Shown: in pieces, positions 19,398 through 37,884 of the stretch | How positions within the stretch are numbered: the first letter of the stretch is position 1 | Layout of the letters: the number at the start of each line of letters is the position of its first letter | Assembly (NCBI GenBank): GCA_050115495.1 | Contig: JASFQK010000007.1 | Location: forward strand, 32,001 to 96,000 | DNA: 64,000 nucleotides | Source of the DNA: Phycisphaerae bacterium | Lineage (GTDB): Bacteria; Planctomycetota; Phycisphaerae; UBA1845; Fen-1342 | Reading direction: 5' to 3' | Notes under the pieces: generated by a model | The model's input: only the letters and a program-made list of their open reading frames with translations | The model's database searches: none | Told to the model about the DNA's origin: nothing | Position numbers and translations under genes: made by a program

Positions 19398-21787
19398 GTC
19401 TGCGGCAGCCCCTCCGGCAACGGGATCTCCACGTCACTCACCGCATCCGAGGCATTCAGCACAACCAGCACATGCTCTGCCCCGTCGCTGCGCAGGAACG
19501 CCCACACATCCGTCGCGTCGTCCGTCAGCAGCGTCTTGAACGAGCCGATGCGCAGGGCCGGATGCGCGTTCCGCAGGGCGATCACCTGCCGGTAGAACGC
19601 CAACTCGTCTTCCATGACGAAGTTCTCTTCCGGCTTCTCGTACGGCTCGAGGTCTTTCCACAACATCGGCTTGCGGCAGGTCGGATCATCCGACCCCCAC
19701 ATCCCCACCTCGTCGCCGTAGTACACCATCGGCGCCCCCACGTACACCATCTGCAACAGCGCCACCAGCCGTGCCCGGGCGTACGTCCCCTCCGGCGGCT
19801 TGTTGTTGTCATAGTCCGGATTGTCGCTCTGCGGGCGGTTCTGCCGATCGTACTCGCGATCCGGATTCTGCGCCATCGACACCAGCCGATCGGTGTCGTG
19901 CGTGTCCACCAGGGTCTGCAGGGCGTACGTCGCCGCCGCCGGATACGCCAGCCGCAATTCGGCCAGCCGCGCCGCGGCATCGCTGGCGGTGATCTTCATC
20001 TTCTGATCGAACGCCCACTTCACCGCCACCTTGGCAAACTCGTAGTTCATGACCGCGTCGAAATGATGCCCATCGAGCCACTGGTCGGCGCGATTCCAGA
20101 TCTCCCCGGTGATCAGCGCGTCCGGGTTGATACTCTTCACGTACTTGCGCCACACCAGCCAGAACGGCCGCGGCACGTCGTTCGGCACATCCAACCGCCA
20201 GCCGTCGATCCCGTCGCTCGGGTCGCCGTCGCCGTTCGGGTCCATCCACCGCCGTGTGATGTTGAGAATGTGCTGCGTGGCGGCGGCGCTGGCCAGACCC
20301 TCGCGGCTCTTGCGGAACACCGGCATGTGTGCGAAGTCAGCCCAGCCCTTGTACGTGAACGGCTCCCACGACGTCACGTCGAACCAGCCGGCGAAACGTG
20401 ACTGCGCCCCGTTGCGCACCACGTCCTGAAACGCCGGATGCTGGCTGCCCACGTGGTTGAATACGCCGTCGAAAATGACCTTGAACCCCATCTCGTGCGC
20501 CTTCTTCACGAAGGCCAGGAACCGCTGGTCCGTTTCGGTCCACTGCCACGTCTGCGGGTCGAGCAGGTCTTCCTGGTCGGCCACGGCGTCGTAGTCACCT
20601 CGCGTCCCGAAGTGGTCATCGATGTGCACGTAGTTCTGCGTATCGTACTTGTGGTACGACGGCGCCTTGAAGATCGGGTTGAGATACAGCGCATTGACCC
20701 CCAACTCCTTGAGGTACGGCAGCATCTGCTCCAACCCTTGCAGGTCGCCGCCGTAGAAACGCTCGTACGCGAAGTTCGCATAGAACGTCTGCCCGTCGCG
20801 CCCTTCCCACGGCGACGGCGTGAACCACTCGCTCGTCCACGGCCGCACCGGATCCGGATCGTTACCCGGATCGCCGTTGCGGAAACGGTCCAGCATGATC
20901 TGGTACCACACCGCATGCTTGGCCCATTCCGGCGTCTCGAACACGCTGTCGTCGGTAAACGTGAACCGATAGGGGTACGGGTCGCTCACGCGCTGGTCCC
21001 CATCTTCAAGGACGAAGGTGTAGCCAATGCTGTGTACCCCCGGCGTACGGGCGTTCTCACGGACCGGGACGACGACCTGCGTCTCCCAGAACGTGAACAG
21101 TGGCCCCTCGGACACCGGCCGCATCTCGTGCAACGCGCCGCCGCGCTCCGCCAGCAAGACACGCTGCACGTCATGCGCGAACGTGCGATACCGCACCGAC
21201 AACTCATCCTCCGCCACCGGCTGCACGAACAGCGGCAGCGGCGGCCGGTGCGCGAGTCCGAGCACATCCACCTGCCCGTCGCCGAGCGTGGCTTTGGACT
21301 GGTGTACGCCCGCCAGCCGCCCGAGCCGAACGAACGAGTTGTAGCCCCCGAACCCGTCCGGCACCCGGTCCAGGTTCACCGGATCGTCCACCCACTTCTC
21401 GTCGTTGACCAGGAACTTGTACTCGTACACGCCCGTCGGCAGGGCCAGCTCCGTCGTCCACACGCCTTCCGCGTCCGGCCCCTTCATCGGGAACGCCTGC
21501 CGGTCCCAGCCGTTGAACGACCCGCACACGACCACCTGCCGCGCCGCGATCTTCGGCTGAAAACGGAACGTGCACTGCCACTGATCCTGCGGCAGCGGCT
21601 CCGCCGTGATCGAGTCCGGCAGCGGTGCCACGTCCTCCGCCGCCCGAACCGGTTGCAGCGGCGGCGCCGGCGGCCACTGCTCCTGTGCTGCCACCCATCC
21701 GACGAACAAACCGACGAGAACAGGAACGATCAAAAGGAACCGTGCCGGCCGGCACGCCGCGGTGATGACGTCTCTGCTCGCTTTCAT
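19289..21787 (-). CDS. Secreted GH13 alpha-amylase/neopullulanase-like enzyme with N-terminal CBM48-like domain (paralog 1)
   Basis: Signal peptide; GSFNGW..YEYKF glycogen-binding motif; GH13 regions DGVFNH, GIDGWRLDV, GEIW, DTHD. Confidence 0.92.
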   Translation of the reverse strand: MKASRDVITAACRPARFLLIVPVLVGLFVGWVAAQEQWPPAPPLQPVRAAEDVAPLPDSITAEPLPQDQWQCTFRFQPKIAARQVVVCGSFNGWDRQAFPMKGPDAEGVWTTELALPTGVYEYKFLVNDEKWVDDPVNLDRVPDGFGGYNSFVRLGRLAGVHQSKATLGDGQVDVLGLAHRPPLPLFVQPVAEDELSVRYRTFAHDVQRVLLAERGGALHEMRPVSEGPLFTFWETQVVVPVRENARTPGVHSIGYTFVLEDGDQRVSDPYPYRFTFTDDSVFETPEWAKHAVWYQIMLDRFRNGDPGNDPDPVRPWTSEWFTPSPWEGRDGQTFYANFAYERFYGGDLQGLEQMLPYLKELGVNALYLNPIFKAPSYHKYDTQNYVHIDDHFGTRGDYDAVADQEDLLDPQTWQWTETDQRFLAFVKKAHEMGFKVIFDGVFNHVGSQHPAFQDVVRNGAQSRFAGWFDVTSWEPFTYKGWADFAHMPVFRKSREGLASAAATQHILNITRRWMDPNGDGDPSDGIDGWRLDVPNDVPRPFWLVWRKYVKSINPDALITGEIWNRADQWLDGHHFDAVMNYEFAKVAVKWAFDQKMKITASDAAARLAELRLAYPAAATYALQTLVDTHDTDRLVSMAQNPDREYDRQNRPQSDNPDYDNNKPPEGTYARARLVALLQMVYVGAPMVYYGDEVGMWGSDDPTCRKPMLWKDLEPYEKPEENFVMEDELAFYRQVIALRNAHPALRIGSFKTLLTDDATDVWAFLRSDGAEHVLVVLNASDAVSDVEIPLPEGLPQTWTVAFGDGGAPQHAEGRLTVHVPAVGGVVLVATGQ

Positions 21788-21837
21788 GACTAAGTAGTGT
21801 AGCCCTCCCCGCCAACCTCCGCCATTGAATCCACCCG

Positions 21838-22044
21838 GCGCCACTGGTGGCTTGCCCCGCGTGCCACTGGTAGCTTGCCCACCAGTGCTCGCCCCCCTAA
21901 CCTCCCCCCCACACAACGCTTACCGACCCCCAACCGCCTGCCCACCAATACCCCCCGGGGGCGATCACACCCCCTTCGCCGGGTGCCACTGGTGGCTTGC
22001 CCACCAGTGCCCCCCCGGTGGCGACCACACCCCCTCGCCGGGTA
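21838..22044. repeat. Cluster of REP-like palindromes GTGCCACTGGTGGCTTGYCCACCAGTGC
   Basis: Copies at 21838 (partial), 21861-21888 and 21983-22010; others at 30915-30942 (reverse), 57848-57875 and a variant at 17593-17615. Confidence 0.75.
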
Positions 22045-22086
22045 CCATGGGCCGCCGCCGACTTCCGCCGGCGAGTGAGGCACGAC

Positions 22087-24132
22087 ATGGCAGACGACCG
22101 GACGGCCCCGCCGCCCGACGAAATGGAACTGGTCCGGCTCGACCCCTGGTTGAAACCCTACGCGCAGAAGCTGCGCGCCCGCTACGAGCGTTACGTCACC
22201 CTCCGCCGCCGGATCGAGGACGCCGCCGGCTCGCTCGCCGACTTCGCCCGCGGCCACGAATACCTCGGCTTCAACCGTGGCGAGCAGGACGGCCGACCCG
22301 GCCTCTGGTACCGCGAATGGGCCCCCCAGGCCCACGCCCTTTTCCTCATCGGCGACTTCAACCACTGGCACCGCGGTCGTCACCAGCTCCGCCGAACGGA
22401 CGGCGGCGTCTGGCAGATCTTCCTCCCCGACGATCAGCCCGACGACCGCATCCCCCACGGCACCGCCGTCAAGACACACGTCATCAGCGAACTCGGCCCG
22501 ATGGACCGCATCCCCGCCTACATCCGCCGCGTCGCCCCTGAGCCCGGCGGCCAGCACTTCGTCGGCCAGTACTGGGCCCCGTCTGAGCCCTACACCTGGC
22601 GGCACGAGCCGCCCGCCCCGCCGATCAGCCCGCGCATCTACGAGGCCCACGTCGGCATGGCCGTCGAAGCGCAGCGCGTCGGCACCTACCGCGAGTTCGC
22701 CGACCAGGTCCTCCCGCGCATCGCCCGTGCCGGCTACAACACCGTCCAGCTCATGGCCATCCTCGAGCACCCCTACTACGGCTCGTTCGGCTACCAGGTG
22801 AGCAACTTCTTCGCACCGTCGTCACGCTTCGGCACGCCCGAAGAGCTGAAGGCCCTCATCGACACTGCCCACGGACTCGGCCTCCGCGTCCTGCTCGACA
22901 TCGTCCACAGCCACGTCGTCAAGAACGTCCAGGAAGGCCTCAACCGATTCGACGGTACCGACTACCAGTACTTCCACGCCGGCCCACGCGGCCAGCATCC
23001 GGCGTGGGATTCGCTCCTCTTCGACTACGCCAAGTGGGACGTCCTCCGCTTTCTGCTCAGCAACGTCCGCTACTGGCTCGAAGAGTTCCGCTTCGACGGC
23101 TTCCGCTTCGACGGCGTCACCAGCATGATGTACCTCGATCACGGACTCGGCCGTCCGTTCACCGGCTACGACGACTACTTCCCCCCGCACGTCGACGAGG
23201 ATGCCATCGCCTATCTCCAAATCGCCAACGACCTCGTGCACACGCTCCGCCCCGACGCCTGCACGGTCGCCGAGGACGTCTCCGGCATGGTCGGCACGGC
23301 TCGCCCCGTGGCTGAGGGCGGCCTCGGCTTCGACTATCGCCTCGCCATGGGCATCCCCGACTACTGGATTCGCATTCTCAAGGAGCGCCGCGACGAGGAG
23401 TGGTCCCTCGCCGAGATCTACCACACGCTCACCAACCGCCGCCGCGGAGAGAAGCACGTCGCCTACGCCGAGTCGCACGACCAGTCCCTCGTCGGCGACA
23501 AGACCATCGCCTTCTGGCTGATGGACGCCGCCATGTACCACCACATGACCAAGGACGCCCAGCACGCCGTCATCGACCGCGGCGTCGCCCTGCACAAGAT
23601 CCTCCGCCTCCTGACCTTCGTCCTCGGCGGCGAGGGCTATCTCAACTTCATGGGCAACGAGTTCGGCCATCCGGAGTGGGTCGATTTCCCGCGTGCCGGC
23701 AACAACAATTCCTACCAGTTCGCTCGCCGGCAATGGTCGCTCGTGGACGACCCGCTTCTGCGTTACCACGATTTGGCGGAATTTGACCGGGCGATGTTGG
23801 CGATTGACGAACGTTACCACATTCTGGCGGAGTCCGACGTCGAGCTCCTGCTCTCCCACGAAGACCAGAAAGTCATGATCTGCCGCCGCGGCCCCTTCCT
23901 CCTGGCGGCCAATCTCCACCCGACGGCGTCCTACGCCGACTACCGCGTCGGCGTGCCCGCTCCCGCCGACTATCGGCTCGTTCTGAACACGGACGACCTC
24001 TTCTTCGGCGGCCACGCCATCGTCCGCACCGGTCAGGTCTACCCCTGGCAATCGGTCCCCTGCCACGCCCAACCGCAGAGCGTCCAAGTCTACCTCCCCG
24101 CCCGCACCGCCCAACTCTGGTCACCGAAGTAG
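22087..24132 (+). CDS. glgB: 1,4-alpha-glucan branching enzyme (GH13_8-like)
   Basis: YEAHVG, FDGFRFDGVTSM, AEDVSG, YAESHDQ, NFMGNEFGHPEW; GAGG RBS before ATG 22087. Confidence 0.95.
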   Translation: MADDRTAPPPDEMELVRLDPWLKPYAQKLRARYERYVTLRRRIEDAAGSLADFARGHEYLGFNRGEQDGRPGLWYREWAPQAHALFLIGDFNHWHRGRHQLRRTDGGVWQIFLPDDQPDDRIPHGTAVKTHVISELGPMDRIPAYIRRVAPEPGGQHFVGQYWAPSEPYTWRHEPPAPPISPRIYEAHVGMAVEAQRVGTYREFADQVLPRIARAGYNTVQLMAILEHPYYGSFGYQVSNFFAPSSRFGTPEELKALIDTAHGLGLRVLLDIVHSHVVKNVQEGLNRFDGTDYQYFHAGPRGQHPAWDSLLFDYAKWDVLRFLLSNVRYWLEEFRFDGFRFDGVTSMMYLDHGLGRPFTGYDDYFPPHVDEDAIAYLQIANDLVHTLRPDACTVAEDVSGMVGTARPVAEGGLGFDYRLAMGIPDYWIRILKERRDEEWSLAEIYHTLTNRRRGEKHVAYAESHDQSLVGDKTIAFWLMDAAMYHHMTKDAQHAVIDRGVALHKILRLLTFVLGGEGYLNFMGNEFGHPEWVDFPRAGNNNSYQFARRQWSLVDDPLLRYHDLAEFDRAMLAIDERYHILAESDVELLLSHEDQKVMICRRGPFLLAANLHPTASYADYRVGVPAPADYRLVLNTDDLFFGGHAIVRTGQVYPWQSVPCHAQPQSVQVYLPARTAQLWSPK

Positions 24133-24390
24133 CTGACACCCTCGTATTCCACCGCCCCCCCACACCTTCATTCTCTAGCTTCAGCATGCGTCAATCCTGC
24201 TTGATTGATCCATTGGTACTCAGTAACATGTGGTTATCTCGTCCGATAAGTCTCACGCTCAGAAATACGCAACCATGACCCGCGGGACGCGTGAGGGACC
24301 GGCTTCTCGTCTCGGCGAAGCCGCAGGAAGCACCGCCCTTGTTCGAAGCGTTCGGTCCTCCATGCGCCACCCACTCTGAGGAGGACAGGT

Positions 24391-27300
24391 ATGCTCGGGC
24401 ACACCATGATGGAACAACGAATGTCGCGCCTGTGGCTGCTGGGTGCCATATTGCTCGGTTCACCTGTGCTGGCCGACACACTCCTCGTACCGAGCCAGTA
24501 CCCGACCATCCAGGCTGCGATCGACGCGGCATGGCCCGGAGACGCAGTCGAAGTTGCCGACGGCACATACACAGGCGACGGGAACCGGGATCTCGACACC
24601 GCCGGCAAGGCGATCACCGTCCGCAGTGCGTCCGGTGATCCCGCCCTGTGCATCATCGATTGCGAGGGATCATCGAGTGAACATCACCGTGGCTTCCATT
24701 TCCACAGCGGCGAGACAGCCGCCACGATAGTAGACGGCATCACCATCTGCAATGGATACAACCACGGCGGTGGCGGCGTCTGCTGTGCCGAAGCCAGCAG
24801 CCCGACGCTCATCAACTGCAGAATCACGGACAACACTGCGACGCAAGCAGCCGCCGGCATCTACTGCTACGACGACAGCAGTCCGACCATCACCGACTGC
24901 ATGATCGCAAATAACACCGCGGGCCATTCAGGCGGCGGCATCTGCTGCCAAGGCGCCAGCAGCCCCACCATCACCAACTGCACGGTAAGGGCAAACACGA
25001 CGGACGCCTCCGGCGGCGGGATCTATTGCTCCGACCACTGCCACTTGACCATCATCGACTGCACGATCAGCGACAACTCACTTGGCACCAGTGGTGGCGG
25101 TGTCCACTGTCAGCTCTATAGCAGCCTCACAATGACCAACTGCACGATCGCGCACAACGCTGCCAGCAATGCCGGGGGCATTAGCTGCAGCGTGCATTCC
25201 GAAATGATGCTCACCAACTGCCTGATCACAGAAAACACCGCGGACCAGTATGGCGGCGGCGTCTTCGCGTCCGGCGACTGCGTGCTGGCCCACTGCACGA
25301 TCGCGAGGAATACCGCTGCGGGCGGGGGCGGTGTTCGTTGTGGTGTCGACGGCGCCACCCTGCTCAACTGCGTCATAAGAGACAACACGGTAACAGGCAA
25401 CGGCGGTGGCGCCCTCTGTATCGACAGCGATGCCATGTTCATCAATTGCGCGATTACAGGGAACACGGCAGAACACGGCGGCGGCATCTTCAGCGAAGAC
25501 AACCCGAGCCCGACGTTCATCAATTGCACGATCGCGGATAACACTGCGGATGACGGCGGCCTCTCCTGCAGTTGGGACAGCACCCCGATATTGACCAACT
25601 GCATCCTCTGGGGCAACTTACCGACGGAGGTTTACGTGTGGACGGGAGCCCCGGTTCTGACCTACTGCGATGTGCAGGGAGGATGGGCCGGTGAGGGCAA
25701 TACCGCCGTCGATCCGGTGTTCGTCGACCCCGTAAACGGCGACTACCGGATTTCCAGAGAGTCGCCGTGCATCGACGCAGCCAACAACCACGCCCTGCCT
25801 CCCGATGCGTTCGACCTCGACGACGATGGCGACACGGAAGAGCCAATCCCCCTCGATCTCGCCGGCCACCCCCGCCTCTTTGACGATCCGAACACGCAAG
25901 ACAGCGGTCTCGGCGAACCACCGCTCGCTGACCGAGGCGCCTACGAGTACCAGGGGCCGTTGACGCTCAACGTTCCAGAAGACTATGACACGATCCAGGC
26001 AGCGATCGATGGGGCGATCAACGGCGACGTCGTCACCGTCGAACTCGGCGTCTGGAGTGGCCCCGGCAACCGAGACCTGGATTGCCGCGGTAAGGCCATC
26101 ACCGTGCGCAGCATCGTCGGAAGCCCGACACTGTGTATCATCAACTGCGAGGGGTCGTGGAACGACCCCCACCGCGGCTTCCATTTCCACAGCGGCGAGA
26201 CTGCCGACACGGTCATAAGGGGCTTCACCATCCGCAATGGAGAAGCGGAGTTCGGCAGCGGCATCTGCTGCGAGGGCAGCAGCCCGACAATCAACCACTG
26301 CACGATCAAGGAAAACGGTTCGCTCAACTACCCAGGCGGCGGGCTCTATTGCACGGCCAGCAGTCCTGCGTTGACCCACTGCACCATCAGCTCAAACACG
26401 GCCTACACCGGCGGCGGCATCTACGGCTCGCACAGCAGCCCTGCATTGCACGAGTGCACCATTATTGGAAACACGGCGTACGACGACGGAGGCGGCATCT
26501 GCTGGTCGAACGGCGGTCCTGCGTTCACCGATTGCAGCATCACGGGAAACGTGGCCGGAAGCAACGGCGGCGGCTTGTATGCCTACGGTGCCAACCTCTC
26601 ATTGACGGACTGCACGATCAGTGCGAATGAGGCCTACGCCGGCGGCGGTCTCTATTGCGAGCATGCCTACCCGACGTTTACCCGCTGTACGGTCAGTGAT
26701 AACTCCGCCGATTCCTACGGTGGAGGTGTCTACTGCCTCTTGATCCACCCCACCTTCACCGACTGCACGGTCCGCTCGAATAGCGCTGGTGTCATGGGCG
26801 GCGGCGTGTATTGCCGGCAAAATGGCAGCCCCACCTTCACCGATTCGGAGATCATCGAGAACACGGCCGGCGGCGGTATCGTCTGTGAGTATCACTCCGA
26901 CCCAATCTTCTTCAACTGCACGATCGCCAGAAACGTCGGCGCGGTTGGCGGTGGCCTACACTGTTGGGAAGGATCCAACCCGGAGCTCACGGACTGCGCG
27001 ATCGCGGAAAACACGGCGGAATACGACGGCGGCGGCGTCTTCTGCACAACGGGCAGCAACCCGGTACTCACCAACTGCACGATCGCCGCCAATGTTGCCT
27101 CCACCGGCGCCGGCGGCGCGCTCTCCTGTGTGGAAGAAAGCAGCCCGACGTTCATGAATTGCCTGATCACCGAAAACTCGGCGTCGTCCGGCGGAGCGCT
27201 GCACTGCTGGATGGCCGACCCGACGTTCACCAATTGCACGATCGCCCTGAACACCGCAGGCTATGGGGGCGGGCTGCTCTGCGAGGAAATGAGCAGCCCG

Positions 27301-27834
27301 GTGCTGACCAACTGCATCCTGTGGGCCGACTCGCCGCACGAGATCTTCGTCTACTCCGGTACACCCGCCGTGACGTACTGCGACGTCCAGGGCGGCTGGC
27401 CCGGCGGAGGCAACATAGACGCCGACCCGCTGTTCCTCGCCGGGCCGGTCGGCTACTTCTATCTGAGCCATACCGCAGCCGGCCAACCGTTTGACAGTCC
27501 CTGTATCGACGGCGGCAATGACACCGCCGAGCACTACGGCCTGGCGACGTCAACGACCCGCCGCGACGAGGCTGTGGACACCGGCATCGTGGACGTCGGC
27601 TACCACTACCCGGTCACAGGCCAGCCGTTCGTGCATGGCGACTTCGACTACAACGGCAACCTGGACATGGAGGACTTCGGCGAATCCGTCTCCTACGCAA
27701 CGGGCCCCGCCCCGGATCCCCCGCACTGGCCGCCGATGTACGGGAACCCCCGCGGCAACATCGTCGACTTCGACGACGACGGCGACGTCGACCTGTTCGA
27801 TTGGAGCTGCTTCCAGTCGGCGTTCGCGCCGTAG
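24391..27834 (+). CDS. Secreted right-handed parallel beta-helix repeat protein, two modules plus C-terminal twin Ca-loop domain
   Basis: Signal peptide; VPxxYxTIQAAID twice; repeated GGGxxC..SPTxxNCTIxxN; C-terminal GDFDYNG / DFDDDGDVD. Confidence 0.9.
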   Translation: MLGHTMMEQRMSRLWLLGAILLGSPVLADTLLVPSQYPTIQAAIDAAWPGDAVEVADGTYTGDGNRDLDTAGKAITVRSASGDPALCIIDCEGSSSEHHRGFHFHSGETAATIVDGITICNGYNHGGGGVCCAEASSPTLINCRITDNTATQAAAGIYCYDDSSPTITDCMIANNTAGHSGGGICCQGASSPTITNCTVRANTTDASGGGIYCSDHCHLTIIDCTISDNSLGTSGGGVHCQLYSSLTMTNCTIAHNAASNAGGISCSVHSEMMLTNCLITENTADQYGGGVFASGDCVLAHCTIARNTAAGGGGVRCGVDGATLLNCVIRDNTVTGNGGGALCIDSDAMFINCAITGNTAEHGGGIFSEDNPSPTFINCTIADNTADDGGLSCSWDSTPILTNCILWGNLPTEVYVWTGAPVLTYCDVQGGWAGEGNTAVDPVFVDPVNGDYRISRESPCIDAANNHALPPDAFDLDDDGDTEEPIPLDLAGHPRLFDDPNTQDSGLGEPPLADRGAYEYQGPLTLNVPEDYDTIQAAIDGAINGDVVTVELGVWSGPGNRDLDCRGKAITVRSIVGSPTLCIINCEGSWNDPHRGFHFHSGETADTVIRGFTIRNGEAEFGSGICCEGSSPTINHCTIKENGSLNYPGGGLYCTASSPALTHCTISSNTAYTGGGIYGSHSSPALHECTIIGNTAYDDGGGICWSNGGPAFTDCSITGNVAGSNGGGLYAYGANLSLTDCTISANEAYAGGGLYCEHAYPTFTRCTVSDNSADSYGGGVYCLLIHPTFTDCTVRSNSAGVMGGGVYCRQNGSPTFTDSEIIENTAGGGIVCEYHSDPIFFNCTIARNVGAVGGGLHCWEGSNPELTDCAIAENTAEYDGGGVFCTTGSNPVLTNCTIAANVASTGAGGALSCVEESSPTFMNCLITENSASSGGALHCWMADPTFTNCTIALNTAGYGGGLLCEEMSSPVLTNCILWADSPHEIFVYSGTPAVTYCDVQGGWPGGGNIDADPLFLAGPVGYFYLSHTAAGQPFDSPCIDGGNDTAEHYGLATSTTRRDEAVDTGIVDVGYHYPVTGQPFVHGDFDYNGNLDMEDFGESVSYATGPAPDPPHWPPMYGNPRGNIVDFDDDGDVDLFDWSCFQSAFAP

Positions 27835-27894
27835 TGGGTGCGGCGGCCCGTGCCCGCCAATTCCCCCGGCACCCACCCGCGGGCACGGCCCGGC

Positions 27895-28158
27895 CTACTT
27901 CTTTGTGGTCCGTTTCGCCTTCGCTTTGGGCTTCGGCGGGTCGTCGATCAGTTCAAGCAGATTGCCGAAGTCGACACCGAGAGCGCGGCATATCTTTTCG
28001 AGGGTCGCAATCGTCGCGTTGTAGCCTGGCTGGCTTCCCATGATCTGCAGCGTGCCATGGGCGATACCGGTTCGCTCCGCGAGCAGCTTGTATGTCATGC
28101 GCTCGCCAGTTCGTCGCCGGTAAGCCTCCATAGCCTCCCTCAGCTTGATTGCGACCAC
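27895..28158 (-). CDS. XRE/Cro-family helix-turn-helix regulator
   Basis: MTYKLLAERTGIAHGTLQIM..TLEKICRALGV..LLE pattern; TATGAT -10 at 28180-28185. Confidence 0.85.
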   Translation of the reverse strand: MVAIKLREAMEAYRRRTGERMTYKLLAERTGIAHGTLQIMGSQPGYNATIATLEKICRALGVDFGNLLELIDDPPKPKAKAKRTTKK

Positions 28159-28205
28159 GTCTTATCCACCAAGAAAGAAATCATAGCTGATAATTAAGAT
28201 TCTGC

Positions 28206-28234
28206 TTGACACCGAGCAGACATAGATGTATAAT
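28206..28234 (+). promoter_or_regulatory. Perfect-consensus sigma70 promoter
   Basis: TTGACA-N17-TATAAT, in an AT-rich patch divergent from the XRE gene. Confidence 0.85.
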
Positions 28235-28240
28235 ACCGTC

Positions 28241-28534
28241 ATTAGCAGAGGCTCGGTAACCGCTCGCCGACGCGGGGTGTTAAAGACGCGCCCTACGGCG
28301 TGAACCTCGGACGGCCGGCGGTATATATGCCCTGGCAGGCAAACGGTCACTCCAGCAGGCACGCTTACAGCAACGGCGTGATGCGGGTTCATGCTCACCT
28401 CAGCCAAGGCAGCCTCGCCCGGGACAGTGTCCGCGCTTATCATAGCGGGCGCTGCCCGGTGCGCGGGGTCGCGAGGGTGAGCTTGACCGTTTGCCCGTGA
28501 CCTTTAGCGCATCGGGTGGCGCCCGTTTCCTTTT
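28241..28534 (+). ncRNA. Candidate structured ncRNA or long structured leader (family not recognised)
   Basis: Follows the consensus promoter. Nested stems GGCAAACGGTCA/TGACCGTTTGCC, GCTCACCTC/GAGGGTGAGC and CAGTGTCCGC/GCGGGCGCTG (G-U pairs on + strand). Weak hairpin plus T-tract at 28513-28534. Confidence 0.55.
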
Positions 28535-28720
28535 GGTGCCATCAGCTTTCGACGTTCCGCCGTCCCCAACGGCGTCGCCACCCCTGCGCGCCAATGCCGG
28601 GCGGGCCGTGCCCGCCAATCGCGAATCCGTCCGAACACCCGCGGCGGCCACGGCCCACCCTACATGGTGCGGAGGCAACGCCGCGGTCGAAGACCGGGGT
28701 CATGGCGTGGAGGAGTGCCC

Positions 28721-29254
28721 ATGCTCGACCGGATCCATACCCGCGCCGGCGACGGCCTGATGCTGACCTTCCCCTACGTCAGTGGCAACGACAACGTCCC
28801 CGCCACACTCGAATTCTGGACGGCCCACGTCGCCCGCGACCTCCTGCAACTCGCCGTCCACTTCCGCGCCCTCGGCATCCTGGGCGAAATCCCCGGCGGA
28901 GCCCGCTATCAAGGCCTCGACTACGGTCGCGGTAAAGACCTCCCCGAAAGCGCCCCCCCGTGCTTCTGGCTGCGCCCCGTCGACCGCCAGACGCGGTTGA
29001 ACGTTCTGGCCGAGTGCCTGCGGCGATTGAACGCACGCGAGGTGTTCACCCGCATTCGTGAAACACACGACTACCGCCCGCAGACGCTGCCGGGCAAGTG
29101 GACCGCCTACCTGGACCGGCACGCCGCGATTAAGGGCGGGTTGCTGACGGTGGTCGCCTGTTGCATCGACATACTGGTCGTCGAGCCGGGGTTGGAGGAA
29201 ATCGAGCTGCGGGCGACGTGGTGGCAACGGTGGTGGGCACACACGAACGAATAG
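28721..29254 (+). CDS. Hypothetical protein (177 aa)
   Basis: GGAGGAG RBS before ATG 28721; gene-like codon use. Confidence 0.7.
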   Translation: MLDRIHTRAGDGLMLTFPYVSGNDNVPATLEFWTAHVARDLLQLAVHFRALGILGEIPGGARYQGLDYGRGKDLPESAPPCFWLRPVDRQTRLNVLAECLRRLNAREVFTRIRETHDYRPQTLPGKWTAYLDRHAAIKGGLLTVVACCIDILVVEPGLEEIELRATWWQRWWAHTNE

Positions 29255-29315
29255 GACGAGCCCACCAAATTCGTCGCCGAACCGGAGAAGCTCATCACAA
29301 CAGAGGACGAACACT

Positions 29316-30035
29316 ATGACCGCACCGACCACACGCCACGACAACGAAAACGCCGCAGAACGGGCCGTGCCCGCCGGCGGCGACACGCCGGAAACGCCCG
29401 GCCCTGCGCCGACCGACACGGACGCCTTCGCCCTGACGGCGTTGCTCCACGATCTCCAACCACACCCCGAACTCGACCTGCCGACGATGGCCTATCATCT
29501 CCATCAATCCGACGCCACCGCCGCCGACGGCTACGGCCACGCGGCCATCAACGAGGCCCGTTCCGCTCTCGAAGCCCTCATCGTCAGCATCGCCCGCACC
29601 ATCTGCCACGGCGTGACAGATAGCACCGGTCTTCGCCTCCGCGAACGTATCCAGGCCGGCAGCACGTTCCGCACACACCGCCGCTGTCTGATGGACGCCG
29701 GCTTCATCGACATCGACGAAAACGAACTGCTGCAATACGTCTACAGCATAGCCAGCGCCCGAGGCAGCCATTACGGCGTAACCGACGACGCCTGGACCCG
29801 CCTGGCCCGGCGAATCGTCTTCATCGTCGGCCAGCACTTCACACAGCGTTACACCATCTGGAAGCAAAACGGCCGCCAGCCGGCGTCGCTTCCCACCAAC
29901 CACCCCCAGCCGGCGTCACGCTCCTGGCCCGCGCGCCTCCTCGCCACCCTCCTGCCCCGCCGACAACCACCCCCAACGCCCCCCATCTCCACCAGGAGAT
30001 CAACCCGCCGCAAACGCGCGAACGCACGCACGTAG
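29316..30035 (+). CDS. Hypothetical helical protein, weakly Abi_C/HEPN-like
   Basis: GAGGA RBS; AAINEARSALEALI and SARGSHYG..TRLARR resemble abortive-infection C-terminal helical domains (by eye only). Confidence 0.6.
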   Translation: MTAPTTRHDNENAAERAVPAGGDTPETPGPAPTDTDAFALTALLHDLQPHPELDLPTMAYHLHQSDATAADGYGHAAINEARSALEALIVSIARTICHGVTDSTGLRLRERIQAGSTFRTHRRCLMDAGFIDIDENELLQYVYSIASARGSHYGVTDDAWTRLARRIVFIVGQHFTQRYTIWKQNGRQPASLPTNHPQPASRSWPARLLATLLPRRQPPPTPPISTRRSTRRKRANART

Positions 30036-30229
30036 GGCGCCGCGCGGCGGTCGACGTCGGCCACGGGGGGCCGACGCTACGGGACGGCTGGCACGGAGAC
30101 CGGCCGCTACGGAAGACGTCCGACACGCCGCAAACGCGCGAATCGACAAACATAGGGCGGCCCGTGCCCGCCAATAGGCAACAGAACCCGCCAGAATCCG
30201 CCAGAACCTAGCATTCCTAGGATTCCCCT

Positions 30230-30258
30230 TTGCTTCTCTCCCGAAGCGCGTCTATCTT
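30230..30258 (+). promoter_or_regulatory. Putative sigma70 promoter
   Basis: TTGCTT-N17-TATCTT. Confidence 0.55.
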
Positions 30259-30262
30259 TCAC

Positions 30263-30413
30263 GTGCTCACGCAGTTCCCGGGCCCGCCTTGACGGACCCT
30301 CGGCCTTCGGAGCCAGGACGTCGATCGAAACGTTGTAGCACGGCTAACCCCGTGTGGTCGGCGACCAAACCCCGAAGACGGATCGTCTCGTGACCCGTGC
30401 GTCGGCGGAGCAC
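30263..30413 (+). ncRNA. Candidate rod-like structured ncRNA (about 150 nt)
   Basis: Begins just after the promoter. End-to-end pairing GTGCTC/GAGCAC, ACGCA/TGCGT, CGGG/CCCG, GACGG/TCGTC, CTTCGG/CCGAAG, with two apical hairpins. Confidence 0.5.
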
Positions 30414-30704
30414 CTTGCCGATCGTCGTCGGCCTGTAGCGGCCGGTCTCCGTGCCGGCCGTCCGTAGCGTCGGCCCCCCGTGGCCGACGTCGACTGCCGG
30501 CGACCGTTCACCTCGGTGAACACGGCAACGGTGCTCAGAGGACGTCGCTCGCATCGGCGAACGCCAGGACGCGGCTGCCTGCACGGAACCGCCCCCTCGC
30601 GGTCACTCAGCGCAGCACCGGAGCGGATCTTTGACAATCGAGTATGCCCCATTCGCCGCGCGGGCGGCCGATCCAGGACGCCCGCGCGCCAGAGCGAAAG
30701 CGGA

Positions 30705-30870
30705 CACAGGGGCAAAGGGGCAGAGGAGCAAAGGAGCAGAGGGAGGGCGATCGGCCCCCGACCGCTCTGCTGCCTCGGCACTCTGAGTGGAGCCGAAGGG
30801 GCTGCCTCCGGCTCAGGGCTCAAGGCTCACGGCTTGTGGCTGACGGCTGACGGCTGATGGCTGATGGCTT
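30705..30870. repeat. Short tandem repeats: 5 x 8-mer (CARAGGRG-like) and 8 x 7-mer (GGCTNAN-like)
   Basis: 30705-30744 and 30810-30870, read directly. Confidence 0.8.
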
Positions 30871-31010
30871 CGCGAAGACGTCCGGTATGGAGCTCGGACG
30901 CTACGGCGTTCGCCGCACTGGTGGACAAGCCACCAGTGGCACCCAGTGTTCGCCGGCGGTGGCACGCGAGTTGCCGAGCGCGCAACGCCTCGTTGCCTCG
31001 TTGCCTCCCC

Positions 31011-31640
31011 CTACTCAGCCCACAACCCGCCCGTCTCGCGCAGCCACGCCACAATGCAGTCGGCGGCGTCGGCGACGTTGTCGTGCGAAATGTCCAGCTC
31101 CAGCGTCGGCAGGAGCGAACTCGCCGCCAGTTGGCGGAGGGCCTCCTGCTCGGCGATGAAAACCGACAGATCGTCGTACTGCGACGGGCGGCCGGAGATC
31201 TTGAGGCGGGCGGCGCGGGCTGTCGGGAAGGAGGCCGGTTCGCGCGTGCAGAGCACCAGGCGGAAGCCCAGGGCCGAGAGCCGCTCTTCCAGCCAGGTGA
31301 AGTCGAACGCCGTATCGTGCACGCGCTGCTGGTAGGCCTGCGTGGACAGGTGGAAGCGATCGACAATCCACGAGTAATACGGCAGCAGCTCGAACAGGTG
31401 CAGCCACGTGCGGTACGTCTCCATCGCCCGCTCGGCCTCATCGGGGGCGAAGTTGATGAGGCCGCGGCCCCACGGCGTGTTCGTAAACCCGCACCACTCG
31501 GCGGACACCAGCGGCGAGTGATAGCGGTAACGGCGTGGCCCGACGAACCCCGGATGCTCGTTCAGGCGGAAGGCGATCTCCGTCTTGAGCGTCAGCCGCG
31601 TGCCTTCGAGGATGATCTTCGGGCAGAGTTTCGACCCCAT
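31011..31640 (-). CDS. Nucleotide-kinase-like (P-loop fold) hypothetical protein
   Basis: KIILEGTRLTLKT (degenerate Walker A) and WIVDRFHLS (dTMP/dNK kinase-like DR motif); GGAGG-like RBS; 7 nt after glgP stop. Confidence 0.7.
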   Translation of the reverse strand: MGSKLCPKIILEGTRLTLKTEIAFRLNEHPGFVGPRRYRYHSPLVSAEWCGFTNTPWGRGLINFAPDEAERAMETYRTWLHLFELLPYYSWIVDRFHLSTQAYQQRVHDTAFDFTWLEERLSALGFRLVLCTREPASFPTARAARLKISGRPSQYDDLSVFIAEQEALRQLAASSLLPTLELDISHDNVADAADCIVAWLRETGGLWAE

Positions 31641-31647
31641 GGCCACC

Positions 31648-33744
31648 TCACCGCCGACTCGGCAGGTAATAATCCCGCACGTACTCGGCGACCATGTGGT
31701 GGGTGTTGAACTGGCCGCAGACGGTGCGCATCGAGCGCAGCATGCGCTGAATCCAGCGGCGGGGCAGGTTCTCACGGTCACGCTCGTAGAAGAGCGGGAC
31801 GATCTCGCGTTCGAGGAGATCGTATAGCGCGTCGGCGTCGGCGCGATCGCGGGCGGTCTTGCTCTTCGCCGGCCCGCCGACGATGGCCCAGCCGTTGGCG
31901 TGGTCGAACGCCTCGGGCCACCAGCCGTCGAGGATCGAGCAGTTGAGGCCGCCGTGCAGGGGCGGTTTCATGCCGCTGGTGCCGGAGGCCTCCTGCGGGC
32001 GGAGCGGGTTGTTGAGCCACACGTCGCAGCCGGCGGTGAGCAGACGGCCGACCTGCATGTCGTAGTTTTCGAGCAGGGCGACGCGGCCGCGCAGGCCGGC
32101 CTTGTGCGCGAGCGTGTAGATCTGCCGGGCGAACGCCTGTCCCGCTGCATCGCGGGGATGAGCCTTGCCGGCAAAGACGATCTGCACGGGGCGGTCGGGG
32201 TCGTTCAGGATCGCGGCGAGCCGCGGCAGGTCGCGGAAGATGAGCGGAGCCCGCTTGTAGGTGGCGAATCGCCGGGCGAAGCCGATGGTCAGGACGTCCT
32301 CGTCGAACATCTCGCACGCGGCGCTGAGCTCGCCGACCGGGCCGAGCCGCCGGGCGATCTGGTCGCGCAGACGCTCGCGGATGAACTGCACCAATCGGGC
32401 TCGCAACTGTCGGCGGACGGACCACAACTCGCCGGCGGGGATACGTGGGGCACGCTGCCACGGATTGTGCCTCGGCCCGGCGCCGAGCCAGCGTGGCTTG
32501 AGGTGCCGCTGATACAGCCCTTCGACCTCCGGGGCGAGCCACGTCTGCGAATGCACGCCGTTGGTGACGTGGCCGATGGGGACGTCTTCGGGGCGTTTGG
32601 CGTCGAACACGTCCATCCACATCCGCCGCGAGACTTCGCCGTGCAGGCGCGAGACGCCGTTGCAACGACCACTCAGCCGGAGAGCGAGCACGGTCATGCA
32701 GAAGGGCTCGGTGCGGTCGGCGGAGTTTTCGCGGCCGAGGCCGAGGAACTCGTTGCGCGGTACGCCGATCTCGCGCATGAGCGGGGCCAGGTAACGTGTG
32801 GTGAGCTTCGGCTCGAAACGGTCGTGGCCGGCGGGGACGGGCGTATGCGTGGTGAAGACGGTCGAGGCACGCACGTTCTCGATGGCGCGGGCGAACGTTC
32901 GGCCGGCCCGCCGCAAACGCCGCAGCCGTTCGAGCGTGCAGAAGGCGGCGTGGCCTTCGTTGAGGTGGAAGACGTTGGGTCGCAGGTGGAGCTGTTCGAG
33001 GGCGCGCGTGCCGCCGACGCCGAGGAGGATCTCCTGACTGAGTCGCGTCTCCTGGTCGCCGCCGTAGAGATGACGGGTGATGGCGCGGTCCGCGGGGCGG
33101 TTCCGGCGGACGTCGCTGTCGAGCAGGTAGAGCGGAACGCGGCCGACGTCGGCGCGCCAGATGCGCGCGGTGACCTTGCGGCCGGCGAGCGGCACGGTGA
33201 CGTGCTGGCGTGTGTCGGTCAGCGGCAGCAGCGAGTAGTCGCACTCCGGGTAGAGCGCAAGCGTGCTGCCGTCACTGGCGAATGACTGCTGGTAGTAGCC
33301 GCAGCGATAGAGCAGGCCGACGGCGACGAGGGGTACGCCGAGATCCGACGTCGACTTGAGATGATCGCCGGCGAGAACGCCGAGTCCGCCGGCGTACTGC
33401 GGCAGGCATTCGTGCAGGGCATATTCGGCGCAGAAGTAGGCGACGCGGAGGCGTTTGTCGGCGTGCTTCGCGGTGCGGGCGAACCACATGCCGGCCCGCA
33501 GGTACGCCCGCAACAACGTCTCGTACTCCTTCAATAGCGCGCGGAATGACTTGTCCGCGGCGCAGGCTTCGAGCCGGGCGGGCGAAAGACGAGCGAGCGT
33601 TTCGAGCGGGTTGTGGTTGGTCGCGTCCCATAGCACGGGGTCGAGCGCGGCAAACAGCCGCTGGGCCGGGCTGTTCCACGTCCACCACAGGTTGCCGGCC
33701 AGTGCTTCCAGACGCAGCCGCAGGTCAGGTGACGGCATACTCAT
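31648..33744 (-). CDS. glgP: Alpha-glucan (glycogen/maltodextrin) phosphorylase
   Basis: GGLGVLAGD, HLNEGH, GFARRFATYKR, EASGTSGMK; ATGA overlap with malQ stop. Confidence 0.95.
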   Translation of the reverse strand: MSMPSPDLRLRLEALAGNLWWTWNSPAQRLFAALDPVLWDATNHNPLETLARLSPARLEACAADKSFRALLKEYETLLRAYLRAGMWFARTAKHADKRLRVAYFCAEYALHECLPQYAGGLGVLAGDHLKSTSDLGVPLVAVGLLYRCGYYQQSFASDGSTLALYPECDYSLLPLTDTRQHVTVPLAGRKVTARIWRADVGRVPLYLLDSDVRRNRPADRAITRHLYGGDQETRLSQEILLGVGGTRALEQLHLRPNVFHLNEGHAAFCTLERLRRLRRAGRTFARAIENVRASTVFTTHTPVPAGHDRFEPKLTTRYLAPLMREIGVPRNEFLGLGRENSADRTEPFCMTVLALRLSGRCNGVSRLHGEVSRRMWMDVFDAKRPEDVPIGHVTNGVHSQTWLAPEVEGLYQRHLKPRWLGAGPRHNPWQRAPRIPAGELWSVRRQLRARLVQFIRERLRDQIARRLGPVGELSAACEMFDEDVLTIGFARRFATYKRAPLIFRDLPRLAAILNDPDRPVQIVFAGKAHPRDAAGQAFARQIYTLAHKAGLRGRVALLENYDMQVGRLLTAGCDVWLNNPLRPQEASGTSGMKPPLHGGLNCSILDGWWPEAFDHANGWAIVGGPAKSKTARDRADADALYDLLEREIVPLFYERDRENLPRRWIQRMLRSMRTVCGQFNTHHMVAEYVRDYYLPSRR

Positions 33745-35303
33745 TTCTCCGAAGCGGCGCCCGCGGTGCGGACGCGGTCGTATGCAACAGCCAATTCGTG
33801 CAGACGATCGGCGATGGCCGGCGTCAGGGCGTTCGGCGGAAGCCGCCAGCGCCAGTTGCCCTCGGCGGTGCCGGGGAAGTTCATGCGAGCCGCACTGCCG
33901 AGGCCGAGCAGGTCCTGTGCCGGGATGACGGCGAGGTTGGCAACGGACATGTACGCCAGGCGGATGATGTCCCAGTGGATCTCGCGGCCGGTTGTGCCGA
34001 GGTAGCGGAGCAGGCGGCGGTATGGCGTCGCTCCGCCGCGGCGGCCGCGCTGACGGGCCTCGGCTCGCAACGTGCGGAACCAGCCGACGGTCGTGTCGTT
34101 GTCGTGCGTGCCGGGATAGACGACGCACTGGCGCAGATAGGCGTCGGGCTCGTTGTAGTGGTCGCCGTCGCCGCCGAAGGCGAAGTGCAACAGCCGCATG
34201 CCGGGGAAGCCGAAGTCGTCGCGCAGGGCGGTGGCCTCTTTCGTCACGACACCGAGATCTTCGGCGATGATCTGCACGGGGCCGAGCGTCTTGCGCAGGG
34301 TTTCGAGCAGTGCTCGGCCGGGCACGCGCGCCCAGCGGCCGTGCTGCGCCGTTCGCGCGCGGCCCGGCACCGCCCACAAGCGATGGAAGCCGAGGAAATG
34401 ATCGACGCGGACGGCGTCGAACTGCTCGAACGTTCGGCGGAAACGGGCGAGCCACCAGGTGAAACCGCTACGGCGATGGCGAGGCCAGTCGTAGTGCGGA
34501 TGGCCCCAGAGCTGGCCGGTGCGGCTGAACATGTCTGGTGGAACGCCGGAGACGACGCGTGGCCGGCCGCCGGGTTCGAGCTGGAAGAGCTTGGGGTGGG
34601 CCCAGACGTCGGCGCTCTGGTGGGCGACGAAGATAGGGATGTCGCCGATCAGACCGACGCCGCGCTGATGGGCATAGCGGTGCAGGGTGGACCACTGCCG
34701 ATCGAAGATGAACTGGCAGAAGCGGTGGAAATCGACGTCGTCGGCCAGAGAGCGGCGGGCCTGGTCGAGGGCCGCGGGTCGGCGGGTGCGCAGAGGCTGG
34801 GGCCAGCGTGGCCAGGGGCGGCCGTGGCACTTGTCCTGCAACGCGGTGAACAGGGCGTAGTCTTCGAGCCAGTCGCGATGCTGTTCGCAGAAAGCGTCGA
34901 AGGCGGCGCGCTGGCGGCGGCTGCGGGCAGCGAACGCGGCGTGCGCCCGGCGAAGTCGATCGAGGCGATAGGGGCGGACTGCTTCGTAGGCGACGTGTTG
35001 GTCGCGCAGGCCGCGAGTCGGCGCCAGGTCGACTTGGCTCAACAGGCCGTCGCGAGCGAGCAGTTCGAGGCTGATGAGCAGTGGGCTGCCGGCCATGGCC
35101 GAGGTCGAACTGTATGGGCCGTCGCCGGGACCGGGGGGCACGACGGGCAGCATCTGCCACCAGCGTTGGCCGGCGGCGGCGAGGAAGTCGACGAAGGCGA
35201 ATGCCGACGGCCCGAGGTCGCCGCTGCCGTGCGGACCGGGGAGGGACGTCGGGTGCAGCAGGACGCCGGCGGCACGCTGGTCGAGGCGGAAGCGTTTCTC
35301 CAT
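33741..35303 (-). CDS. malQ: 4-alpha-glucanotransferase (GH77)
   Basis: GVLLHPTSLP, GDIPIFV, RVDHFLGF, IAEDLG, GTHDNDT. Confidence 0.95.
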   Translation of the reverse strand: MEKRFRLDQRAAGVLLHPTSLPGPHGSGDLGPSAFAFVDFLAAAGQRWWQMLPVVPPGPGDGPYSSTSAMAGSPLLISLELLARDGLLSQVDLAPTRGLRDQHVAYEAVRPYRLDRLRRAHAAFAARSRRQRAAFDAFCEQHRDWLEDYALFTALQDKCHGRPWPRWPQPLRTRRPAALDQARRSLADDVDFHRFCQFIFDRQWSTLHRYAHQRGVGLIGDIPIFVAHQSADVWAHPKLFQLEPGGRPRVVSGVPPDMFSRTGQLWGHPHYDWPRHRRSGFTWWLARFRRTFEQFDAVRVDHFLGFHRLWAVPGRARTAQHGRWARVPGRALLETLRKTLGPVQIIAEDLGVVTKEATALRDDFGFPGMRLLHFAFGGDGDHYNEPDAYLRQCVVYPGTHDNDTTVGWFRTLRAEARQRGRRGGATPYRRLLRYLGTTGREIHWDIIRLAYMSVANLAVIPAQDLLGLGSAARMNFPGTAEGNWRWRLPPNALTPAIADRLHELAVAYDRVRTAGAASEK

Positions 35304-35326
35304 GGCCGACGAACTCCGCGGCGGGG

Positions 35327-37831: not shown

Positions 37832-37846
37832 GCCGCGAATTATACT
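37818..37846. promoter_or_regulatory. Overlapping divergent promoters
   Basis: Plus strand TTGCTG-N17-TATACT; minus strand TATAAT (37839-37844) 7 nt before ATG 37831. Confidence 0.55.
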
Positions 37847-37884
37847 CGGCCGGCCGCTGGTGACAGCGGTGCGGCGGAGGTTGC

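Follow-up and report, generated by a model that had tools for sequence, protein, structure and literature searches.

A multicopy structured leader RNA in Phycisphaerae: a candidate antisense-coded attenuator upstream of a HEPN-like gene

What is transcribed from a perfect promoter that points away from a small regulator gene into DNA with no obvious coding content? The question is raised by a locus in the window analyzed here, which is the whole 64,000-nucleotide stretch of a Phycisphaerae genome (GenBank assembly GCA_050115495.1, contig JASFQK010000007.1, positions 32,001 to 96,000); coordinates refer to this window unless another contig or locus is named. The promoter (28206..28234, + strand) is of the sigma-70 type and matches the consensus at 12 of 12 positions (exact TTGACA-17-TATAAT). 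The preliminary description of this DNA considered such a sequence rare in a GC-rich background, and the count agrees, there being three perfect sites in the whole 5.97-Mb genome (66.7% GC). Divergent from the promoter lies a gene for an 87-residue HTH_26 protein (Cro/C1-type XRE; 27895..28158, − strand; Pfam E 2.5e-11). The HTH_26 family gave 12 tblastn matches across the source genome, and against the HTH_VI model of PADLOC the protein reached only E 0.006. An AT-rich imperfect inverted repeat just 5′ of the −35 box (28178..28196, no strand assigned) is a weak candidate for the HTH operator.

The interval between the promoter and the next gene, gene A, had been thought to lack a convincing open reading frame, and in this it was judged correctly: no coding frame is conserved there, the best one being open in 8 of 35 homologous copies, and the spacers of these 35 copies differ in length, with every one of the three phases represented. 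Predicted folding of 28241-28534 is good on the + strand (z −3.07, with 0 of 200 shuffles as good) and less so on the − strand (z −1.47, 18 of 200 shuffles), in keeping with the + strand structure first reported; many conserved G-U pairs, and one-sided changes from G-C to G-U, occur on the + strand only. An Rfam search of 28150-28750 gave no match at the gathering score or at E<=10, and ARAGORN found neither a tRNA nor a tmRNA, so that the earlier failure to place the RNA in a known class is borne out by a search of the models. A literature search that did not extend to subscription papers or to the motif supplements of the Weinberg screens, either of which could hold one, returned no description of it. 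The structured-RNA family is real, undescribed and absent from Rfam.

Fifteen copies of the RNA are present in the source genome, and a covariance model recovers the same 15 together with one opposite-strand echo. More than 40 further copies are found in a few other genomes and metagenomes, usually as a module in which a divergent HTH gene and promoter are followed by the RNA, gene A and gene B. A promoter site matching at least 9 of 12 positions was found in 31 of 40 copies. Control by the XRE protein, which had been proposed for this locus, is plausible insofar as an HTH_26 gene faces the promoter in 28 of the 40 copies, but we infer it from gene order, and of the 15 copies in the source genome only 10 face an HTH_26 paralogue, the other five facing another small regulator-like gene (HTH_3 in one case).

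The distribution is patchy. BLAST of the RNA in 40 relatives gave no real match; a pattern search found it in 2 of 401 genomes of the class and the model in 4 of 150 genomes of the order, and gene B is present in at least 2 of 401 genomes of the phylum (the source is included in each count). Carriers often have many copies: G801 has 10 matches and G802 has 13, two of them partial or on the opposite strand, while six other tested carriers have 4, 3, 2, 1, 1 and 1 and two have none. The carrier records are mostly labelled as Phycisphaerae or Planctomycetota MAGs. One record labelled as a Dehalococcoidia MAG (L071) has a complete module, through transfer or mis-binning. Searches of viral contigs, of phage records and of plasmids did not turn up the element, and a phage or plasmid origin was set aside on that account.

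The RNA and the genes behind it are not always together. When 53 gene B loci were fetched, 25 had the RNA upstream at E<1e-33, and many of the others end at contig ends. Four loci (L066, L070, L072 and L080) have an A-B operon with an XRE gene and a promoter and no RNA, and L036 retains only the 3′ end of the RNA, that is, the 3′ strand of stem Q, the antiterminator strand and the terminator (see below). Since such RNA-free operons exist, the RNA is an optional layer of control. Stacked XRE genes accompany these promoter-driven operons (L080:1986-3400, L036:2700-3300, L066, L070 and L072). The opposite case is seen at C51:119-2800 (L183), where two modules lie in tandem and the first has an HTH gene, a promoter and an RNA with a decayed guide/target match, and no cargo.

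The RNA starts with a variable 5′ leader (28241..28327, + strand, as are all features of the RNA), in which neither length nor sequence is conserved, 15 to 152 nt separating the −10 box from the conserved part. It includes a 5′ multi-stem domain drawn at 28248-28308 in the preliminary description; folding predicts the domain for this copy, but it is not kept in the others. The conserved segments that follow are arranged in the order a, Y, H1, X, a′, P, Q5, X′Y′, Q3, antiterminator strand, terminator and U-tract. Stem a (28328-28336) pairs with a′ (28403-28411) to close a guide hairpin (28328..28411) of 61-85 nt, median 77 over 36 copies, which contains guide Y (28338-28349), a variable hairpin H1 (28350-28392) and guide X (28393-28400). 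Next comes the near-invariant hairpin P (28413..28464), made up of a 5′ strand (28413-28423), an inner hairpin with a conserved 9-nt loop (28426-28453) and the switch strand (28455-28464). Stem Q (28465..28504, pairing 28465-28473 with 28496-28504) displays a target loop of 20-23 nt consisting of X′ (28474-28482) and Y′ (28484-28495). The antiterminator strand (28507..28516) pairs with 28455-28464 in what we call the ON fold and overlaps the 5′ arm of an intrinsic-terminator-like hairpin (28513..28534; 5 pairs, −6.3 kcal/mol) with a U-rich tail. The switch strand thus has two partners, the 5′ strand of P and 28507-28516, and is therefore invariant. Extra stand-alone copies of hairpin P, inside repeat elements 3′ of the terminator, occur at L054:690-755, L056:1505-1562 and 1696-1760, and L047:278-340.

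Covariation was examined in 36 sequences, these being 40 parsed copies less one duplicate, one truncated and two mis-parsed copies. In this alignment the ON fold (a:a′, the inner hairpin, and Q with its antiterminator extension) has 98.2% of cells paired and two-sided changes in 13 of 36 pairs, a level reached by 0 of 500 shuffles, with slid controls 37-50% paired. The OFF fold (Y:Y′, X:X′, P and the terminator) has 89.3% of cells paired and 98 two-sided cells against 39 in shuffled alignments. The 12-bp helix Y:Y′ (28338-28349/28484-28495), noticed from the start as the closure of a long domain, is real and covaries, with 96% of cells paired and two-sided changes in 10 of 12 pairs, but two folds compete and it belongs to just one of them. 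For X:X′, which the aligner put out of register, pairing reaches 52% in the automatic alignment; 266 of 306 cells pair, only in registers picked for each sequence, which favor pairing. The overlapping antiterminator and terminator helices are kept across homologues: over 39 distinct copies, 389 of 390 cells and 195 of 195 cells are paired. Seven of the 19 pairs in the long ON helix and four of the five in the terminator never vary, and covariation says little about the antiterminator and terminator themselves because their pairs are mostly invariant. The earlier suggestion of an undescribed non-coding RNA or attenuating leader is supported by the want of an Rfam family and by covariation of the two folds that hold the terminator and the antiterminator.

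The two folds are close in energy. In 35 copies (five duplicate, truncated or mis-parsed ones having been dropped) ON minus OFF is −2.4 ± 5.1 kcal/mol, and ON is the lower in 24. The minimum-energy fold is guide-paired in 13 of the 35 and antiterminated in 22, and when the guides are forced to be single-stranded the antiterminator forms in all 35. To judge by the aligned sequences, the RNA is one with two mutually exclusive, near-isoenergetic folds supported by covariation, and it is very probably a transcription attenuator.

The guide hairpin has G at +1 in 35 of 36 copies and U at −1 in 31 of 36. The CI and C4 RNAs measure 77-79 nt and are processed by RNase P, and U−1 and G+1 are end determinants for that enzyme. 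One source mentions U and G determinants only for tRNA-His (PMC5499578, excerpts). A metatranscriptome contig identical to 28262-28404 is a weak hint of expression, its depth of 6.8 being low and DNA carry-over possible in data that consist of contigs only; the same RNA run has a paralogue-like contig over 28404-28580 and none over the HTH gene, A or B, parts whose lack of coverage proves nothing.

Beyond the terminator, a second leader (28535..28620, + strand) carries a TGCGC motif and then a REP-like palindrome at 28604. It is about 90% identical in most copies of the source genome and different in other genomes, which suggests concerted evolution. The motif lies 40-85 nt beyond the terminator in 31 of 39 copies (1.3 in shuffles) and could re-pair with the antiterminator strand, giving a third fold after read-through. 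Gene A begins with ATG at 28721, preceded by a GGAGGAG site.

Guide and target vary from copy to copy and fit each other within a copy. The 35 copies compared have 31 distinct targets; in 29 of the 35 no other guide pairs better with the target than the cognate one, and the same holds for 12 of 13 in the source genome. An exception at C42:~1000 (C42:913-1120, L003) has an X guide like that of the C10 copy and a target like that of the G801 copy L119. By its sequence it looks like a recombinant, and it suggests that crossovers fall inside the invariant hairpin P. For 23 copies that were found later and stayed outside model building (three truncated ones were dropped), the own guide was ranked among 62. 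It comes first in 15 of these copies and within the top three in 19, and in two decayed copies it falls to places 49 and 52. Identical 22-nt codes recur between assemblies while H1 is 56-70% and the HTH protein 76-85% identical. Near-identical codes make up 0 of 200 pairs within one genome and 25 of 1691 between genomes, which by permutation is not significant (P 0.06) when each metagenome locus is taken as its own genome.

The target loops have no further match in the genome under 3 mismatches, and two codes, of about 60, had no exact match in viral contigs. The possibility that the guides are aimed at an outside target was rejected, since the variable segments point to the RNA's own downstream loop and the outside searches, made with two codes in the case of the viral contigs, were empty. 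In equilibrium co-folding, the cognate guide added in trans displaces the antiterminator in 12 of 35 copies and yields the terminator in 5; within the source genome the terminator forms with 3 of 13 cognate guides and 0 of 156 non-cognate ones.

The cargo consists of two genes, neither of which has a PHROG match. Gene A (28721..29254, + strand) encodes a helical protein of 177 residues that exists in several subfamilies and is sometimes found in tandem. Its model has a pLDDT of 90, and it matches nothing in Pfam, PADLOC or Atlas or by fold, which does not imply a new fold; structure searches detected no RNA-binding fold in it. Gene B (29316..30035, + strand) encodes 239 residues with a HEPN-like fold, for which an Abi_C-like identity is a lead. 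The model (pLDDT 80.6) gave HEPN entries in eight of the top nine rows of a VIA search (best Z 10.3, rmsd 4.1, 120 aligned). HEPN entries were also at the top in Foldseek at E 0.14, where helical bundles score high by chance, and the Atlas feature match of 0.89 to an Abi_C cluster is a lead only. It has no match in Pfam or PADLOC. HEPN ribonucleases carry the motif R-x4-6-H. This usual motif is absent from the 68 gene B sequences, all of which have E86 and H152; residues 146-148 are A-S-A, and a K or R occurs only three residues before H152, in a K/R-G-S-H motif. We surmise from the models that the product has a HEPN-like fold, ribonuclease activity being at most predicted. The protein is a stand-alone domain with a basic or amphipathic tail, and in distant relatives of 250-320 residues the domain is C-terminal. 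A complex prediction for A and B scored 0.02, which gives no verdict. Longer, divergent B homologues of 374-388 residues with a C-terminal extension are found at L186:4590-5753 (G000 C60) and in P0121. A gene A-like domain fused to B was looked for in P0121 and L186 and discarded (probabilities 2.1 and 0.3, not significant).

The surroundings of the modules are in part those of defense genes. All three DUF4062 genes of the source genome, two of which have TPR arrays, directly border a module and lie 2.0-2.8 kb from an RNA copy (C21:25356 in L176, C73:2799-3080 in L188 and C43:53209 in L182), and positions no more than 3 kb from a copy make up only 1.1% of the genome. DUF4062 is described as an anti-phage NADase in a preprint (bioRxiv 10.64898/2026.05.01.722283). 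In a scan of 101 ORFs, NB-ARC-TPR (L172:3301-5793) and AbiTii (L185:2007-2975) genes adjoin two more copies. Among 81 ORFs at 29 loci of other carriers, Eco57I-type methylase, DpnI_C, DUF488, NB-ARC and Macro genes are present on the HTH side, and most neighbors fit no family. The cargo is probably a small defense or stress module with a HEPN-like effector, its defensive role being suggested by these neighbors.

The window copy itself sits between a gene for a beta-helix protein and a kinase-like gene. The former (24391-27834, + strand; 1147 residues) is convergent with the HTH gene, and its product is a right-handed beta-helix repeat protein that contains an internal duplication. The latter (31011-31673, − strand; thymidylate-kinase-like, Pfam E 0.0025) has relatives at 63-68% identity in 5 of 15 genomes of the family; it is present in 0 of 6 congeners, and therefore no empty site can be defined. 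The wider region, 19289-37987, we take from a reading of its translations to be an alpha-glucan/glycogen metabolism cluster with two amylase-like paralogues and branching enzyme-, phosphorylase- and amylomaltase-like ORFs. A pair of REP-like palindromic repeats marks the left edge of the module (27846..27890, at 27846 and 27878, no strand assigned); besides the one at 28604, further GC-rich palindromes of this kind lie at 28643, 29363 and 30160, and the genome holds 203 at <=1 mismatch. Type VI retrons have an HTH gene. No recombinase, integrase, Y1 transposase or reverse transcriptase is adjacent to the modules examined, and a retron or transposon identity was dropped on these grounds; the six Y1 transposase matches of the genome lie elsewhere, and its three reverse transcriptase genes, on C34, C79 and C8:79 kb, are beside no module. 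Beside the modules on C25 and C8, next to their HTH ends, matches to Rfam Acido-Lenti-1 occur in clusters (L140:882-1795, L152:827-1186), five of them above the gathering score; they look like dispersed repeats in the flanks, outside the RNA.

The reading we favor, at a probability of about 0.55, is that of an antisense-coded attenuator that gates genes A and B by means of a trans-acting negative guide, the decision between the folds being set by sequence-specific pairing of guide and target. In its favor are the covariation of both folds and their closeness in energy, the fit of guide and target within copies, the recurrence of identical codes in different assemblies, the length and end letters of the guide hairpin, the logic known from CI with seqA/seqC and from IsrK, the HEPN-like fold of B and the DUF4062 genes nearby. 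In the ON state, a:a′ would lock both guides into the first hairpin, stem Q would show the target loop and extend into the antiterminator, and A and B would be transcribed. In the OFF state, Y and X would pair with the loop, Q would be blocked, hairpin P would keep the switch strand, and the terminator would form with release of an RNA of about 290 nt. The nascent transcript is envisaged as folding a:a′ first, which would allow read-through. The guide hairpin of about 77 nt, with its U−1, G+1 and stem of 7-9 bp, might then be excised in an RNase P-like manner and accumulate, and the excised guide might act in trans, pairing with the target loops of later transcripts and so closing down the operon in the way of P4 CI RNA. 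A burst of A and B would be expected on entry of a module into a cell that lacks the code, and also after loss or titration of the guide. Since code and HTH gene are particular to each copy, we propose that many modules could coexist with little cross-talk, and the copies are probably controllable independently of one another. Several findings count against this best explanation: the terminator stem is short, no seqA-like upstream target is seen, a cognate guide in trans switches only a minority of copies in co-folding, the deficit of shared codes within genomes is not significant, the antiterminator and terminator pairs hardly vary, X:X′ is poorly paired in the automatic alignment, B has neither the usual HEPN motif nor a PADLOC match, most neighbors in other carriers are unclassified, and the phage and plasmid collections gave no copy. 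A wider and more tentative proposal is a chromosomal library of orthogonal RNA-coded switches, with up to 15 modules per cell, each with its own HTH gene, promoter and 22-nt code, in which the cargo would be shuffled by recombination in the invariant core and a HEPN-like effector gated at defense hotspots would fire only with the guide absent, as in a new arrival, or depleted.

An attenuator that works purely in cis is the rival that has to be weighed most closely. Here the folds would be chosen by kinetics, or by a protein (the product of A, B or the HTH gene, or a host factor) at the 9-nt loop or the guide hairpin, and the codes would be neutral compensatory drift among old paralogues. All of the covariation lies within one molecule and the energies are nearly equal; the conserved loop and the stand-alone copies of hairpin P in L054, L056 and L047 suggest a protein site; and trans switching in co-folding is weak, with code exclusion at P 0.06. 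Against it, codes stay identical while H1, which matters only in cis, falls to 56-70%, the guide hairpin resembles a processed RNA in its length and its terminal letters, and gene A has no detected RNA-binding fold. We regard this rival as unlikely, if deserving of serious attention. It is doubtful to a greater degree that the system is a positive switch like IsrK, OFF by default through pairing in cis, with a free target loop from a second transcript, a fragment or an outside RNA binding the guides to turn it ON, so that cargo expression would be bistable or triggered. Blocking of the guides does give the antiterminator in 35 of 35 copies, the neighbors include defense genes, and the read-through transcript of IsrK is activated in trans by IsrK itself (PMC4825925, excerpts), but ON is the lower in energy in 24 of 35, a:a′ can form before the target is made, and neither a second loop in the genome under 3 mismatches nor, for two codes, an exact viral match was found.

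A toxin-antitoxin role had been suggested at the outset, with the RNA as antitoxin or guide of the downstream orphan genes by analogy with type III systems. In its present form, the terminated RNA of about 290 nt would neutralize the HEPN-like product of gene B and the terminator would only limit read-through. The order promoter, non-coding RNA, terminator and HEPN-like gene does resemble that of RCd22-AbiF (PMC12373285, excerpts), and the fold of B fits, but we hold this to be very improbable. The A-B operons that lack the RNA (4 loci) or have only its 3′ end (L036) argue against a type III antitoxin, and so do the cargo-free RNA copy of the C51 tandem and the lack of tandem repeats or any repeated motif in the RNA. 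The coded guides, whose segments target the RNA's own loop, and the dedicated antiterminator would also go unexplained. That the structure acts as single-stranded DNA, as a recombination or mobilization site of a REP-flanked cassette with an incidental promoter, would suit the patchy multicopy spread, the tandem and chimeric modules, the REP-like palindromes at the edges and the six Y1 transposase matches. This seems barely credible when set against the G-U pairs and one-sided changes confined to the + strand, the conserved orientation of promoter and U-tract, and the modules' lack of an adjoining recombinase, transposase or reverse transcriptase.

Were the antisense-coded attenuator borne out, its interest would extend beyond this locus. 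A few enterobacterial phages, with one system per element, are known to use attenuation gated by antisense pairing from the leader of the RNA itself; an unrelated RNA family appears to reach the same logic in Planctomycetota, with 10-15 differently coded copies per genome. Natural compensatory variation reads out the specificity code directly, and the copies are a candidate ready-made set of orthogonal switches for synthetic biology. RNA-level control is also linked here with an unclassified HEPN-like module beside anti-phage genes. The library proposal, if true, would amount to a phage-style RNA immunity code outside phages and a set of natural orthogonal attenuators.

Among known systems, RCd22-AbiF of C. 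difficile is a type III-like toxin-antitoxin system in which a non-coding RNA and a terminator precede a gene of a HEPN family (PMC12373285, excerpts). Unlike it, our modules have no duplicated abiF motif, the segments being single-copy in the alignment; the RNA is dispensable for the A-B operon; and gene A, the guide/target code and the antiterminator are additional. The product of gene B is like the Abi_C/AbiJ-type HEPN proteins in fold, but differs from them in having no Pfam or PADLOC match, in the K/R-G-S-H motif that replaces R-x4-6-H, and in being a stand-alone domain. IsrK of Gifsy-1 belongs to the very transcript that it targets and switches between two near-isoenergetic folds (PMC4825925, excerpts), features which the present RNA would share; IsrK, however, activates translation of orf45-anrP, whereas here the fold would gate a terminator, and no similarity to it was found. 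In C4, looped complementary segments give the heteroimmunity of P1 and P7 (PMC12197685 and PMC2864571, excerpts), and the operon is also under a protein repressor (PMC8198154, excerpts). Our RNA resembles C4 (RF01695; c4-a1b1) in its complementary segments in loops and in sequence specificity. C4, in contrast, blocks translation at the ribosome-binding site, and the target here is about 230 nt 5′ of the first start codon, within a terminator/antiterminator switch; there is no sequence match, and the hosts are Phycisphaerae, not Proteobacteria.

None of the 22 Rfam matches over 20 homologous loci is to the C4, c4-2 or isrK models, and no setting of phage or satellite immunity was found, the flanks holding housekeeping or defense-like genes. 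The element would work by a similar logic, but because there is no model match, no phage and a different architecture, we do not consider it a member of the C4, CI or IsrK families. Processing of a leader that is not translated gives rise to the P4 CI RNA, whose pairing with seqA and seqC leads to premature termination (PMC4825925 and PMC3632133, excerpts). As in P4, the untranslated leader holds a small structured RNA with complementarity to a later part of that leader, and two separated hairpin segments complementary to a contiguous downstream site of the same transcript are present, with Y:Y′ and X:X′ covarying. Unlike P4, no second, upstream target of the seqA kind was seen (no loop copy at <=2 mismatches, in a leader that is variable and down to 15 nt), and the cargo is not replication or antirepressor genes and has no phage context. 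An explicit antiterminator hairpin displays the target here, and up to 15 coded paralogues are present per genome.
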